Shown in pieces: positions 8,937 to 29,415 of a stretch of DNA of 64,000 nucleotides. The stretch is from Candidatus Hodarchaeota archaeon (GTDB lineage Archaea; Asgardarchaeota; Heimdallarchaeia; Hodarchaeales; Hodarchaeaceae): positions 83,175 through 147,174 of the forward strand of contig JAEOTC010000086.1 in the NCBI GenBank assembly GCA_016840035.1, written 5' to 3'. A model generated the notes under the pieces. It searched no databases and was not told the DNA's origin. It worked only from the letters and a program-made list of their open reading frames with translations. The translations under genes were made by a program, and so were the position numbers. The number at the start of each line of letters is the position of its first letter. The first letter of the stretch is position 1.

Positions 8937-8991
8937 CAAAAAACAAATAATTTAGCCTGTGATGATTTGTTAAAAGGCACAGATTACCAAT

Positions 8992-9792
8992 ATGAAGAGC
9001 GATGAGCGGTCTGAGGCTATTTTCCTTTTAAACTGGAGCCAAGCTACAGTGAACATCAGTATATTTCCTCTAAGGGATTTTCCTCTTATTAATCCTGGTG
9101 ATCCACTAGCAGATATTATTGTGGATGAACTACGAAAGATGGACCTGAAGGATAGAGATATCATTGTAATTGCGCATACTATTGTTTCAAAAGCAGAGAA
9201 TAAAGTTTTTGATTTAGAAACAATAACTCCAAGTCCGTTTGCGTTAGAGATCGGTAAAAGGCAGGAAAAGGATCCACGTAAAATCGAAGTGATTTTACGT
9301 GAAAGTAGCGAAATCATTCGTATGAATGATAATGTTCTGATAACAGCAACCCACCATGGATTTATCTGTGCTAATAGTGGAATAGATAAATCTAATACAC
9401 CTGGAGAAACGGTAATCTCTCTTCCTGATGATCCTGATTCTTCTGCTAGACAAATAAGGGAGGTTATTAAGAAAAAATTAGAGAAGGATGTTGCTATAAT
9501 AATCTCTGATACCTTCGGTCGCCCTTTAAGAGTAGGCACTGTTAATTTTGCTATAGGATTAGCTGGGATCGCCCCTTTAGAAGACATTCGGGGTAAAAAA
9601 GATCTATTTGGTTATGAATTAAAATCAACAATTATAGCAAGGGTTGATGAGGTGGCTGCAGCTGCGGGTATAGTTATGGGGCAAGCTGATGAAGGAACAC
9701 CGATTATTATAGTAAGAGGGGTTGAATATTCAATCAGCAATGAGTCTGCACGAGAATTGATACGCGAACCAACAAAAGATGTCTTCCGATAA
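8992..9792 (+). CDS. cofE: Coenzyme F420:L-glutamate ligase
   Basis: IVSKAE, ICANSGIDKSN, ISDTFGRPLRVG, VMGQADEGTP motifs. Confidence 0.9.
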   Translation: MKSDERSEAIFLLNWSQATVNISIFPLRDFPLINPGDPLADIIVDELRKMDLKDRDIIVIAHTIVSKAENKVFDLETITPSPFALEIGKRQEKDPRKIEVILRESSEIIRMNDNVLITATHHGFICANSGIDKSNTPGETVISLPDDPDSSARQIREVIKKKLEKDVAIIISDTFGRPLRVGTVNFAIGLAGIAPLEDIRGKKDLFGYELKSTIIARVDEVAAAAGIVMGQADEGTPIIIVRGVEYSISNESARELIREPTKDVFR

Positions 9793-12695: not shown

Positions 12696-13913
12696 TTAGA
12701 TTGGTTGCCATCCCACAAATATAAAGGAAAGAGCGAGATTTAAGAGTAAAACAAATAAGGCGAAATATTTTATCTTTGAATGTAGAGCTTTGTTGTTCTC
12801 TCCAAGAAAGAATGCAAGTAACTTATCACCATCTAGGAATGGAACTGGTAATAAATTCATTAATGCCAACATTAAGTTTAATCCTGCAGTAAAGGACATA
12901 GTATTCAGTATCCAATACGGGAGTAATCTTATAAATAAAAGATTGGATAGAAACTTTGGTTCATGATAATTTTGAGTGTATATTCCAACATAACCAGTGT
13001 TATTATCTAAGTTACTTCCTGTAAAATCCGATTTATTTGCCGTTCGAAGAGTTATCGGATCTATATTGCCAGAAAAATGAAATGTCAGAGTTTGATTGAT
13101 ATAAACTGTAGTTTTTACGAAATAGGAGAATTCTGAAGCAGATTTTAGTGACCAGTATCTTTCACTCCCATATAAATCCCCCTGTATTCCTATAATCACA
13201 TACCCAGCACGAATACCTTCTAACCGTGCGGGTGTTCCTGGGGAAGTATCTACAACAAGTACACCATTTGAATCTGGATTGTAAAATAGTGAATGAAAGA
13301 ATGGAAATCCTATTGGTGCAACTAAGAGGAGAATCAAAATAAAAACCGTCATATTGGCTAACCCTCCAGCAGCCATAATTCTCATCTTTGATCTCCTTGA
13401 AGCTTCTTCTATGTCCTTTTCCTCGGGTTCAACAAAGGCTCCAAAAAAGAAAATAAAAATAAAAATACCTGTACTTTTTAATGAGACTTTTTCATTTATT
13501 GCAGCAATTCCATGGGCAAATTCGTGAACAACTGCACCAATCATAATTGCCACAATTACGTAGGGTAAAACTCCGAATGATACCGTTACTCCAGGGATTA
13601 CAGGTGTTACGGGGATAGGAGCTACATCACTTGATTTAGGTAGGAAAAATGAAACAATATTTATTGAGAAAACTATTAGCCCTGTGAATAGAATACCAAG
13701 GCCTGATATTACCCCAATATCCCAAATAAGCTTCCAAATGTTCTTTCCACGTCCCCCAATTTTAGAAATTATATCATTAAGCCTCGTTGTGTGATAAAAT
13801 AGAGTTCCCAAACCAATCCTTGGATTTGAGACACTAAACCATTCTATTCTTGAAATACCTGATAAAACAATCCAAACGAAAGCAGTTAGGAGGAGGAAGA
13901 TCAGCGCGTCCAT
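12696..13913 (-). CDS. Site-2 protease (M50) with PDZ-like insert
   Basis: HEFAH, GAFVEP and NLLPVPFLDG motifs. Confidence 0.93.
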   Translation of the reverse strand: MDALIFLLLTAFVWIVLSGISRIEWFSVSNPRIGLGTLFYHTTRLNDIISKIGGRGKNIWKLIWDIGVISGLGILFTGLIVFSINIVSFFLPKSSDVAPIPVTPVIPGVTVSFGVLPYVIVAIMIGAVVHEFAHGIAAINEKVSLKSTGIFIFIFFFGAFVEPEEKDIEEASRRSKMRIMAAGGLANMTVFILILLLVAPIGFPFFHSLFYNPDSNGVLVVDTSPGTPARLEGIRAGYVIIGIQGDLYGSERYWSLKSASEFSYFVKTTVYINQTLTFHFSGNIDPITLRTANKSDFTGSNLDNNTGYVGIYTQNYHEPKFLSNLLFIRLLPYWILNTMSFTAGLNLMLALMNLLPVPFLDGDKLLAFFLGENNKALHSKIKYFALFVLLLNLALSFIFVGWQPI

Positions 13914-14043
13914 AGTAGTCCCCGAAAAGTATTTAATCTTATTAGATGTTAATGTTCTCTCATTGTGTCAGTTTTCGTCTCTAATTGTGTATTAATCATA
14001 TTCAGTATTTGTTTTTTTAGGTATGAATCTAAATCTTCGAAAC

Positions 14044-15150
14044 CTAATTTTGGTCCCAACTTATAGTGTAGCGAAGAAGAGCGATGATACCTCCAAAAGT
14101 CTTCAGTTGGGTTGCTGAATCGCTTTGAGATGAAATAATTACGATTTTTCCCTTCGTTTGCTCGATAATTTTCAACAGTTTTTGTATCTCTGAAATAGGG
14201 GCCTGATTGCTTCCATGAAGATAATGATCAATCATTAAAAGTGTTTCAACGACTCCTGTTTCAGCAATTTGCTTAATATGGGTGTAACCATAAGCAATGT
14301 CTCCCGATCCTTTGCTGATTCTTTGTAAAAATTCCTCAATATCTCTTTGCTCCTCAATTATCTGGAAATCTTTTGCTAATTTATCTAGAGCTTCTGATTT
14401 CATGAGCTCAAATAATCCGATTCGATTTCCCCCACTAGATGAACTCCCAATGACCACATTGAGATTTTCTTTAGGAAATGCATCCCTTAAATATTCAGAT
14501 AACCGTTCTTTTGCGAATCCTGGTCCTCCAATGAGTAAATTTTTCGTTTCTGGTAACACACTACGTTGGACAAGCTGTGCAATATTTTCAAAGAATGCGC
14601 TGGATTGTTCTTTACGTACTTTTGCCTTAGAGTGTTTTCTACTAATCCCAGATTTTTCTTGGAATATAACATTTAACTGATAATTATCTAAGATGCCAAT
14701 ACATACTTCATTATTATCTACGGTGAGTAACCCGATTTTCGGTTTAATTGATGCTTTTTCAGCATCTTTCAAAATTTTCAGGTAATATTTCGACCATTCA
14801 GCTTTAAAAACAGTTATTGTATCAGATATTCCAATATTTAGTGTATGATATGAGCCAATTGAAACATGTTGCTCGGGACCTTGAAAGATTTTACCTTTTA
14901 CTCGTAATCGATTGCTAGCAACGCTTTCCTGAAATTTTTGTCCTTCTACATCTACTCCAATAACCATGGTAACCCTTTGACTTTCTTCTCCAGATCTACC
15001 CTCGGTTCCAGACCTTCTGATCCGACGAGAAGTCTTTGCAATGACTCTATCCCCATTAACAATTATTGTTGACAAAATGTACAAATCAGTTGGTGATTCT
15101 GCTCGTAGAATTACTTGATTTGTCCGTAAGTCAGATTTTATTATACGCAT
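14044..15150 (-). CDS. pelA: Pelota/Dom34 ribosome rescue factor
   Basis: RLRVKGKI, YHTLNI, GGPGF and FGGIIALLRY motifs. Confidence 0.92.
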   Translation of the reverse strand: MRIIKSDLRTNQVILRAESPTDLYILSTIIVNGDRVIAKTSRRIRRSGTEGRSGEESQRVTMVIGVDVEGQKFQESVASNRLRVKGKIFQGPEQHVSIGSYHTLNIGISDTITVFKAEWSKYYLKILKDAEKASIKPKIGLLTVDNNEVCIGILDNYQLNVIFQEKSGISRKHSKAKVRKEQSSAFFENIAQLVQRSVLPETKNLLIGGPGFAKERLSEYLRDAFPKENLNVVIGSSSSGGNRIGLFELMKSEALDKLAKDFQIIEEQRDIEEFLQRISKGSGDIAYGYTHIKQIAETGVVETLLMIDHYLHGSNQAPISEIQKLLKIIEQTKGKIVIISSQSDSATQLKTFGGIIALLRYTISWDQN

Positions 15151-15189
15151 TTGGAGAAACGCCTTCTAGGGCATGTAGTTGTTCGTTAT

Positions 15190-15546
15190 TTAATATAACT
15201 TTAGTGTAGAAGTGATTTTTTCGACCTCAAGTTGATTGTGGGGTCCTACTCCAATTGCTGTTGTAGTACCTGGAGGTAGTTGGGTTCTTCCAGCATCATT
15301 AATTTTGCTTACAAATACTCCTTGTCTCCTTATTCGTGCCTCGATTTCTTCAAGTTGAGCTTCAGAATCGACCGCAAGGACTACCTTCATCTGACCCCCA
15401 TTCCACCACTGATTAAAGAGAGTAGGATTTTGTCTCATTATTTTAATTGCGGCACTGACTGCTGCATGTGAAGCTTGTGCCGCTGCTTTCCCCTTGGACA
15501 TTTTAAGGTCTTTTCTCAGAATGAGGATTTGCTTGAGTTCTACCAT
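15190..15546 (-). CDS. pth2: Peptidyl-tRNA hydrolase Pth2
   Basis: MSKGKAAAQASHA and DAGRTQ motifs. Confidence 0.95.
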   Translation of the reverse strand: MVELKQILILRKDLKMSKGKAAAQASHAAVSAAIKIMRQNPTLFNQWWNGGQMKVVLAVDSEAQLEEIEARIRRQGVFVSKINDAGRTQLPPGTTTAIGVGPHNQLEVEKITSTLKLY

Positions 15547-15637
15547 TCTTTTTTCCTCCAGTTCTCAACTATTGCATTGGAAATAATTTTGTAGGACCTA
15601 AGAGATACCCTTCAATAAATATTCGGAGGAATACTCC

Positions 15638-15720
15638 TCAGTGAGGTACATGGACATCATTAACAGGTTCAAGTGGTGTCCGATTATGAACCCATCATCA
15701 GTATAGGTCAGTATCATCAT
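15638..15720 (-). ncRNA. Box C/D 2'-O-methylation guide RNA with two guides (16S helix 34), embedded in a 196-nt stem-closed structure at 15602-15797
   Basis: Minus strand reads ATGATGA-tactgacctata-CTGA ...hairpin ggttca/tgaacc... ATGATGT-ccatgtacctca-CTGA. The guides complement conserved 16S UAGGUCAGUA and GAGGUGCAUGG. Confidence 0.8.
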
Positions 15721-15902
15721 TCTGGTGATTATAGTCAAGTTTGCATCAATTAAGGCAAGTGATCTAAATATCACCATGTTATACTGAAGGATATCTCAAA
15801 TATTGCTAATAAGAGGTTGTTTTTGGAGGTGATTTAATTCTTTAGAATTATTTGGAGATGAATCCAACTTGATTAAATTTCTTTAAAAAATAGATCCAGT
15901 CG

Positions 15903-16421
15903 CTAGGCAACTAGTTCTTCGCCCTTGGTAATTCTTATCCTGCATGGAGTGGGGAATTTTGCTTTTCCACGGCGAAGGGCATCTTTAGCCATTTCTAGAT
16001 TTTCAAGATTAGTACGTACAAATAATAATCTATCCTCTTCATATACACGGGCAGCTACACTAATTACTTTGCCAAAAGCTTTTCGCATTCCATTTTGAAT
16101 ACGATCTGCTCCTGCACCAGTCATCATCTTATTTTCTCGAATACGATGATGAGGGTAAACACAAATTCGATAATGATAATTTTCTCGACCAAGATTTCGT
16201 GTTAAGAATCGATTCACGTGTATCCTGGCTGCTTCTAATGCGTTGTGTGAGATTTGACATCGTTCTTTAGCAATTAAAGACACTTCTATAGGAAAATCTG
16301 TACCTGGAGAACCTAGATCAAAAGTACGAATTTTAGGGTCAGGTCCACCTTTTATGAATTTTTTGCGCGTAAAGGGTGGGCGGTCAATACGAGTATAGCA
16401 GTGAGCTGGTCTTTTTCCCAT
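15903..16421 (-). CDS. rpl10e: 50S ribosomal protein uL16 (L10e)
   Basis: RENKMMTGAGADRIQNGMRKAFGK. Confidence 0.96.
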   Translation of the reverse strand: MGKRPAHCYTRIDRPPFTRKKFIKGGPDPKIRTFDLGSPGTDFPIEVSLIAKERCQISHNALEAARIHVNRFLTRNLGRENYHYRICVYPHHRIRENKMMTGAGADRIQNGMRKAFGKVISVAARVYEEDRLLFVRTNLENLEMAKDALRRGKAKFPTPCRIRITKGEELVA

Positions 16422-19382: not shown

Positions 19383-19399
19383 ATTATGGATAAAAGTGA

Positions 19400-19489
19400 A
19401 AGGATCCTCTATACTCAAGATCATCATCATTTAGGGATACTCTAAGAAGTACTCCTTATCGGTAGGGCTAGAGACATCATGGGATCCTT
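19400..19489 (-). ncRNA. Putative box C/D guide RNA with internal hairpin
   Basis: Terminal stem AAGGATCC/GGATCCTT; C ATGATGT, D' CCGA, C' ATGATGA, degenerate D TAGA; 11-12 nt spacers. Confidence 0.55.
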
Positions 19490-19550
19490 CCGATTTTTAG
19501 TTAGCACTTGGAATTTATAATTCTTGTTGTTTTAAGTTAAAATAGGATTT

Positions 19551-29001: not shown

Positions 29002-29109
29002 GGATCCGTGGCTTAGCCAGGATAAAGCTTTTATACATGTAGAGCTTCTAGAAAGAGCGGCGGCCTTCTAAGTCGCAGGTCGGGGGTTCAAATCCCCTCG
29101 GATCCGCCA
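29002..29109 (+). tRNA. tRNA-Arg(TCT) with 30-nt D-loop intron (29024-29053); CCA encoded
   Basis: GGATCCG/CGGATCC acceptor; GCGGC-CTTCTAA-GTCGC anticodon arm; hairpin insert before A21. Confidence 0.9.
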
Positions 29110-29312: not shown

Positions 29313-29415
29313 GAGCCCTTCGCTTAGCATGGATAGAGTGCTTGCCTCCGGAGCAAGGATTATCTATTTCATGATCCTCCGTAAGAGGTCGTGAGTTCAA
29401 ATCTCACAGGGCCCG
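29313..29415 (+). tRNA. tRNA-Arg(CCG) with ~28-nt intron in the 3' strand of the anticodon stem (about 29356-29383)
   Basis: CTTGC-CTCCGGA-GCA[intron]AG; T arm GTGAG-TTCAAAT-CTCAC; acceptor has an A2:C71 mismatch. Confidence 0.82.

Follow-up and report, generated by a model that had tools for sequence, protein, structure and literature searches.

Box C/D sRNAs of archaea are as a rule compact RNAs of 50-70 nt (PMC7994747) with K-loops (PMC3116282). Among the described RNAs close to the one reported here are long-range double guides of Nanoarchaeum equitans: sR15 carries guides for opposite strands of 16S helix 30 (G930 and G1217), sR17 is a related double guide, and for sRNAs of this kind both dual methylation and a chaperone role have been proposed (PMC4644070). 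Among eukaryotic modification sites, yeast Gm1271 (guided by snR40) and Gm1428 (snR56) are located in helix 34 and have their counterparts in human Gm1328/Gm1490 and Arabidopsis Gm1272/Gm1431 (PMC2794176); Dictyostelium also carries both of these helix-34 Gm sites (PMC8817022). Furthermore, yeast snoRNAs possess conserved 'extra base-pairing' elements, situated mainly between D' and C', for which the stem-loop of snR70 is the tested case, and both snR40 and snR56 are listed with flanking complementarity (PMC3116282). In the literature searched here, there is practically no description of box C/D RNAs from Asgard archaea. The order Hodarchaeales has been reported among the closest archaeal relatives of eukaryotes.

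The RNA analysed here is encoded on the minus strand of a metagenome-assembled genome of an uncultured member of Hodarchaeales (Asgard archaea), the assembly of which comprises 293 contigs and 4.3 Mb at 87% completeness. It shares with N. equitans sR15 and sR17 (PMC4644070) the C, D', C' and D boxes, the 12-nt guides, the agreement with the N+5 rule and a pair of guides directed at the two strands of a single 16S helix, at sites far apart in sequence. It differs from them in its target, which is helix 34, in the length of the core (83 nt against approximately 50-70 nt), in a 10-bp covarying stem (K-turn) that stands in place of a 3-9-nt K-loop, in a large conserved loop, in a long 5' leader and, in the clade to which the window belongs, in a 16-bp outer stem. 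The window denotes throughout the whole stretch of DNA that was analysed, 64,000 nt in length; the coordinates of all features are compiled in Table 1.

The initial annotation had proposed an extended C/D RNA with 12-nt spacers and an 83-nt core, and this part of it holds: positions 15720-15638 of the minus strand form a C/D'/C'/D core with two 12-nt guides, and its boxes are conserved in relatives, where the guide spacers, both exactly 12 nt here, measure 12-13 nt. The features expected of an archaeal C/D sRNA were found as regards the boxes C, D, C' and D', the spacer length and a guide-target pairing of at least 9-10 bp with a Watson-Crick pair at N+5; in compactness and K-loop the RNA departs from that class, with its 83-nt core and a D'-C' spacer of 37 nt. 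The strict dual-guide C/D pattern has only two occurrences in the 4.3-Mb genome; a loose scan (box, 12 nt, CUGA and a match to rRNA) returned mostly false positives. The Rfam search assigned no family, either at the gathering threshold or with the cut-off relaxed to E = 10, and yielded weak generic C/D matches only (e.g. TtnuCD34, sR11 and snoPyro_CD, E > 1). It should be added that two additional box candidates were discarded, namely UGAUGG right after D' as an alternative C' box, which is not conserved beyond the sub-clade of the window, and UGAUGC in the 5' leader as an additional box, which is not conserved.

Taken as a whole, the locus is best explained as encoding a double-guide box C/D sRNA that is functional in Hodarchaeales, a reading that we consider probable. 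Judged from its sequence, the RNA is a genuine and conserved double-guide C/D sRNA, the novelty of which lies in the architecture of a known RNA class. It would assemble with L7Ae, Nop5 and fibrillarin; fibrillarin (263 bits) and Nop5 (224 bits) are encoded in the genome, adjacent to each other on contig C112.

Table 1. Features of the sRNA locus and its neighbourhood in the window, in minus-strand order, followed by the RNase III genes located on other contigs of the same genome
Feature	Position	Strand	Remarks
rpl10e (uL16)	15903-16421	-	Pfam Ribosomal_L16, E = 6e-30; upstream neighbour of the sRNA
Promoter-like BRE/TATA motif CUAAAGAAUUAAAU	15832-15845	-	similar motifs in relatives, judged by eye
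Outer stem, 5' arm GAGAUAUCCUUCAGUA	15782-15797	-	pairs with 15602-15617, 16 contiguous bp
5' leader, 61 nt	15721-15781	-	variable hairpin within a GUGAU/AUCAC helix
Box C AUGAUGA	15714-15720	-	kept in all homologues (G001 and G017: GUGACGA)
D' guide UACUGACCUAUA, 12 nt	15702-15713	-	pairs with 16S UAGGUCAGUA; N+5 = first G, E. coli 1197 equivalent
Box D' CUGA	15698-15701	-	invariant in 19 of 19
D'-C' segment, 37 nt	15661-15697	-	covarying hairpin
D'-C' stem, 10 bp	15696-15687 with 15671-15662	-	covariation
D'-C' loop, 15 nt	15686-15672	-	sits on the 10-bp stem
Loop heptamer GGACACC	15675-15681	-	complementary to 16S GGUGUCC, E. coli 1081-1087 (h36/h37)
Box C' AUGAUGU	15654-15660	-	invariant (19 loci)
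D guide CCAUGUACCUCA, 12 nt	15642-15653	-	pairs with 16S GAGGUGCAUGG; N+5 = G before UGCAUGG, E. coli 1051 equivalent
Box D CUGA	15638-15641	-	consensus; conserved
Small 3' hairpin, GGAG-loop-CUCC	15625-15637	-	directly after box D; stem invariant, loop variable in five close species
Outer stem, 3' arm UAUUGAAGGGUAUCUC	15602-15617	-	pairs with 15782-15797
pth2 (peptidyl-tRNA hydrolase)	15190-15546	-	Pfam PTH2, E = 1e-39; 56 nt downstream of the sRNA domain
RNase III + dsRBD, 242 aa	contig C126:1474-2199 (L085:1363-2091)		
RNase III + dsRBD, 409 aa	contig C184 (L086:1351-2580)		

Since neither the 16S nor the 23S rRNA gene of this genome is present in its assembly, the guide targets were assessed on the 16S genes of three genomes of the same genus (G002, G008 and G017). 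In the whole 16S locus of these congeners, the best match of each guide is one site in helix 34: the D' guide forms 10 contiguous Watson-Crick pairs and one G-U pair with GGUAGGUCAGUA, and the D guide forms 11 contiguous pairs (10 Watson-Crick and one invariant G-U) with GGAGGUGCAUGG, the two sites being 156 nt apart. By our estimate, the chance that a random 12-mer finds a 10-nt Watson-Crick run in 1.5 kb of rRNA is about 0.4%. At the N+5 position of both guides, a guide C is paired with a target G in Watson-Crick fashion, and alignment to E. coli rrsH places these guanosines at 1051 (D guide) and 1197 (D' guide), on opposite strands of helix 34. The complementarity to both strands of this helix, first suggested from the window alone, was thereby borne out in three same-genus 16S genes, which also contain both target strings named at that time. 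Following the N+5 rule, the D guide would direct 2'-O-methylation of the G equivalent to E. coli 1051 and the D' guide that of the G equivalent to 1197; by simultaneously holding both future strands, the RNA may furthermore help this decoding-site helix to fold. As a side observation, one of the 16S genes, L006 (G008:C9:1695-3919), spans 2225 nt against a model of 1478 positions, and its insertion of approximately 750 nt is possibly an rRNA intron.

The exact pattern of box C and D' guide was recovered from 18 of the remaining 21 genus genomes, and a search of 61 further Heimdallarchaeia genomes gave no match; the pattern of box C' and D guide, for which 400 Asgard genomes were searched, occurred in the same 18 genomes and in two other Heimdallarchaeia. 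A covariance model added divergent copies in G001 and G017, bringing the total to 20 of the 21, and the sole genus genome without a match to the sRNA is 70% complete. Variation is nearly absent from the guides and boxes, and the flanking sequence diverges. In the divergent copies (L089 of G001 and L088 of G017), box C reads GUGACGA and box D reads CCGA, which replaces U by C on both sides of the U-U pair in the C/D K-turn, and an 8-bp terminal stem (GACAAGCU/AGCUUGUC) directly adjoins the boxes.

Compact canonical sRNAs guiding the 1051-equivalent G were found in other Heimdallarchaeia (L056 and L057) and in a single genome among 301 Thermoproteota (L087 of G483). All three have a near-identical guide (CAUGCAC.../CAUGUACC...) in the same N+5 register as the D guide of Hodarchaeales; unlike the Hodarchaeales RNA, they possess merely 5-10 nt between D' and C' and no hairpin, and in L056 and L057 the partner guide is a different one. 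In L087 (around position 1501, minus strand), the D guide ACAUGCACCUCA is almost identical to that of Hodarchaeales and the first guide AACUAGACCUGU is loosely similar to their D' guide. With compact sRNAs of other Heimdallarchaeia families and of one Thermoproteota genome guiding the 1051 site, this site is therefore targeted beyond the extended family, and the extended form itself is, among the genomes compared, specific to Hodarchaeales. The pairing of two helix-34 guides may be older than Asgard archaea, a hint given by one genome only.

The initial annotation had also equated the two targets with Gm1428 of snR56/SNORD25 and Gm1271 of snR40/SNORD32. The published helix-34 listings are consistent with this, and so is a nucleotide-level check in which yeast tiling oligonucleotides 18S-32 to 18S-36 were chained (PMC5199042 supplement), given that two letter drop-outs are assumed. 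In the oligonucleotides as printed, 155 nt separate the G before UGCAUGG from the first G of CAGGUC; two oligonucleotides appear as 49-mers, one of which provably lost a letter, as seen from its overlap conflict with the next oligonucleotide, and if both lost one letter, the spacing in yeast becomes 157, which equals 1428 - 1271. Moreover, Um1269 (snR55) precedes Gm1271 by 2 nt, which is compatible only with the G before UGCAUGG (PMC8817022). The identity of the predicted sites with yeast Gm1271 and Gm1428 is well supported, the second site being short of nucleotide-level proof. As a lead only, a count from the 3' end of the yeast 18S sequence assigns number 1428 to the first G of GGUCUG.

The same two helix-34 guanosines as predicted here are served in eukaryotes by SNORD25/U25/snR56 (18S Gm1490/Gm1428) and SNORD32A/snR40 (Gm1328/Gm1271), that is, by two RNAs, whereas in Hodarchaeales one RNA would account for both sites. 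Similarity beyond the guide dictated by the rRNA went undetected, and the Rfam searches (gathering threshold and E up to 10) revealed no homology to SNORD25, SNORD32, snR56 or snR40. The link with eukaryotes is one of shared targets and architecture, not of demonstrated descent.

The hairpin between D' and C', noticed already in the first inspection of the window, is real and covaries. A single nucleotide lies between D' and the stem, and three nucleotides lie between the stem and the GA of C', which corresponds to K-turn geometry. Over 19 sequences, 94.4% of the cells are paired and changes on both sides are seen in 8 of the 10 pairs; such covariation was reached by none of 500 shuffles, and pairing amounted to 52% or less once the 3' partner had been slid by one column or more. 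The alignment shows a C'/D' motif closed by this 10-bp stem, with a predicted K-turn replacing the short K-loop typical of archaea.

D'-C' hairpins also occur in at least three further C/D RNAs of the same genome. An extended C/D RNA at window positions 19398-19490 (minus strand) carries the boxes AUGAUGU ... CCGA ... AUGAUGA ... UAGA, an 8-bp terminal stem (AAGGAUCC/GGAUCCUU) and a D'-C' segment of approximately 28 nt in which a bulged hairpin is possible. Another one, on contig C11 (27826, plus strand), has an 8-bp D'-C' stem with a UUUA loop and a guide, CGGUUUUACCGG, forming 10 Watson-Crick pairs with 16S; that on contig C184 (6970, minus strand) has a bulged D'-C' stem of approximately 12 bp and a guide, CAGUUGCACUUU, forming 11 Watson-Crick pairs with 23S. 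The window also harbours, at 8953-9019 (plus strand), a canonical compact C/D sRNA with the terminal stem UAGCC/GGCUA and the order GUGAUGA, 14-nt guide, CAGA, 8-nt spacer, AUGAAGA, 12-nt guide and CUGA, on account of which the assumption that all sRNAs of this genome are extended was rejected. Several RNAs with D'-C' hairpins next to one compact sRNA mean, therefore, that the stem-closed C'/D' motif is recurrent here and not universal.

In the loop on top of the stem, the first six bases of the heptamer (GGACAC) do not vary, and a C follows them in 18 of 19 species as well as in G001 and G017, with the stem sequence beneath varying; the only variant is GGACACA in G074. The 16S of G002 has a single copy of the complement GGUGUCC, located between the two targets and 30 nt 3' of the one for the D guide, and the order of D' guide, loop and D guide is colinear and antiparallel with 16S positions 1197, 1081-1087 and 1051. 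We estimate the chance of a 7-mer match within the 156-nt interval between the targets at about 1%. This complementarity comprises only 7 bp and comes without covariation, because all available 16S genes share GGUGUCC; in five further sRNA-bearing genomes, including that of G074, a 16S gene was sought and none was found assembled. The other extended sRNAs of this genome are without such loops, and the hairpin itself therefore needs no pairing with rRNA. In yeast snR70, too, a D'-C' stem bears a conserved loop complementary to rRNA near the methylation site (PMC3116282); in the present case, the complement is situated 30 nt from one target instead of immediately flanking it, is limited to 7 bp, belongs to an archaeal host, and the contact is a predicted one.

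The 16-bp closing stem, described initially as having two G-U pairs that form on the minus strand only, was confirmed by folding and by its coordinates. On the plus strand, the two G-U pairs turn into A-C mismatches, and the outer helix is therefore perfect on the minus strand only. The 211-nt minus-strand RNA folds at -59.8 kcal/mol (z = -4.2; 0 of 200 shuffles as good), and the plus-strand fold is weaker (-56.8 kcal/mol), its outer helix being broken by the mismatches. In the five-species sub-clade of the window (the window and L009-L012), conservation of the two arms equals that of the core. Substitutions are one-sided transitions with pairing kept on the minus strand (U-A to U-G, G-U to A-U), accompanied by one mismatch inside the helix and another at its end; double compensatory changes were not seen.

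A 16-bp stem at the corresponding position is absent in the other species of the genus and thus restricted to this sub-clade of approximately five species; the rest of the genus has different flank helices, 8-11 bp long and at other distances, some of them statistically weak. The processing from a structured precursor that had been proposed for the snoRNA-like architecture does not follow from this distribution, the helices of other species differing in both length and distance. The energy of the flank duplex clearly beats that of shuffled flanks only in the sub-clade of the window and in three other species, for which reason a family-wide outer stem was rejected. A BHB (splicing-endonuclease) motif in the outer stem was rejected as well, the 16 bp being perfect and free of bulges. 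In the copy of the window, the terminal pairing that adjoins the boxes is a weak CACC/GGAG, and the 16-bp helix lies 61 and 20 nt away from them; an alternative partner for the GGAG of the small 3' hairpin would be CACC/CUCC upstream of box C. Within the leader, the inner hairpin exhibits compensatory changes in two pairs, and one of the five species has an interrupted version of the 5-bp helix around it.

Two RNase III proteins with dsRBD (242 and 409 aa) are encoded in the genome, and a dsRNA-cleaving enzyme is therefore available. Their homologues were detected in 16 of 21 genomes of the genus, closed ones included, and Rnc proteins of such type have been described before from Asgard archaea (bioRxiv 10.1101/2023.12.14.571608). 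The 242-aa protein has its close orthologues (60-63% identity) in G002, G014 and G073, i.e. in the sub-clade with the 16-bp stem, which is a single-clade coincidence and no evidence.

The synteny check showed the same order, rpl10e-sRNA-pth2, in all 19 related loci compared. No T-run was found between the sRNA and pth2, and the sRNA is therefore probably the 5' part of the pth2 transcript, the two being probably co-transcribed. A search of public RNA runs listed none that contained the locus. In most of 19 relatives, A-rich or TTAAAT-type motifs precede box C by approximately 110 nt, and AAGAAAGTTAAAT is common to five relatives at the promoter-like position, both judged by eye. If the BRE/TATA-like motif of the window is a promoter, the transcript would start approximately 8-13 nt upstream of the outer stem; the sRNA would then be transcribed from its own promoter right after rpl10e, probably along with pth2. 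The surrounding stretch of the window (12696-16421, minus strand) is a run of translation-linked genes consisting of rpl10e, the sRNA, pth2, an eRF1-fold protein and an M50 peptidase; the eRF1-fold protein downstream of pth2 is 368 aa long and Pelota/aRF1-like.

A function mainly or exclusively as a folding chaperone of helix 34, with one or both sites left unmethylated, would agree with the roles that Dennis et al. proposed for long-range double guides (PMC4644070) and with the invariant G-U pair of the D guide two positions from its target. We nevertheless consider it unlikely, as a Watson-Crick G-C pair occupies N+5 in both duplexes, each spacer has exactly 12 nt, the boxes follow the consensus and the same sites are methylated across eukaryotes. 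Hardly any credence can be given to the idea that the region encodes a protein or that the boxes came together by chance: a 59-aa ORF is indeed present at 15598-15777 (minus strand), but it has no Pfam match, the conservation is of the RNA type (invariant guides and boxes, covarying stem, variable flanks), and against a chance arrangement speaks also the rarity of the strict pattern in the genome. The alternatives that deserve more weight concern the loop and the outer stem. For the loop, we tentatively propose that GGACACC pairs with 16S GGUGUCC as an accessory contact similar to the eukaryotic 'extra base-pairing'. It is also possible that the loop is a protein-binding or tertiary-contact element, e.g. 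the site of a lineage-specific sRNP or assembly factor or a di-sRNP contact, with the guide function unchanged. The strict invariance of 6-7 bases across 21 species, the failure of the complementarity to extend into flanking loop bases, its shortness and the lack of covariation with rRNA would suit such an element, against which stand the position of the 16S complement exactly between both targets in colinear order, the action of the snR70 loop through pairing (PMC3116282) and the fact that no candidate protein is known.

As for the outer stem, it might join the ends of a precursor domain of approximately 200 nt and in this manner aid assembly or, more speculatively, be cut by one of the RNase III-type enzymes of this genome. 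A rather improbable alternative is that stem and 5' leader act at the level of mRNA, as an insulator, a stabiliser or a translational control in the 5' UTR of pth2, and not in sRNA maturation. The location of the sRNA within the probable pth2 5' UTR in 19 of 19 genomes, the conserved promoter-like motif preceding the leader, and the clade-specific occurrence of the stem far from the C and D boxes point in that direction; on the other hand, the stem forms an exact boundary around the sRNA domain and stops 56 nt short of the start of pth2, so that the GGAGG ribosome-binding site stays free, and in other sub-clades closing helices directly adjoin the boxes, as with the 8 bp of G001 and G017.

If the double-guide reading is correct, two decoding-site methylations that are universal in eukaryotes are predicted to be made in Hodarchaeales also. 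It would moreover represent an archaeal guide RNA with a stem-closed C'/D' motif and a possible accessory loop, features so far described for eukaryotic snoRNAs, and the predicted Gm sites, the loop-rRNA contact and the stem-defined precursor bear on the origin of eukaryotic snoRNP architecture. A much stronger scenario, in which Hodarchaeales keep an intermediate snoRNA stage with dual guide, C'/D' stem, loop pairing and RNase III-cut stem, and in which SNORD25/snR56 and SNORD32/snR40 descend from a dual-guide ancestor, appears improbable to us.

Elsewhere in the window, two tRNA matches were observed on the plus strand, at 29313-29415 (103 nt) and 29043-29098 (56 nt). An intron is probably present in the former, and the latter is a partial match covering model positions 9-63.
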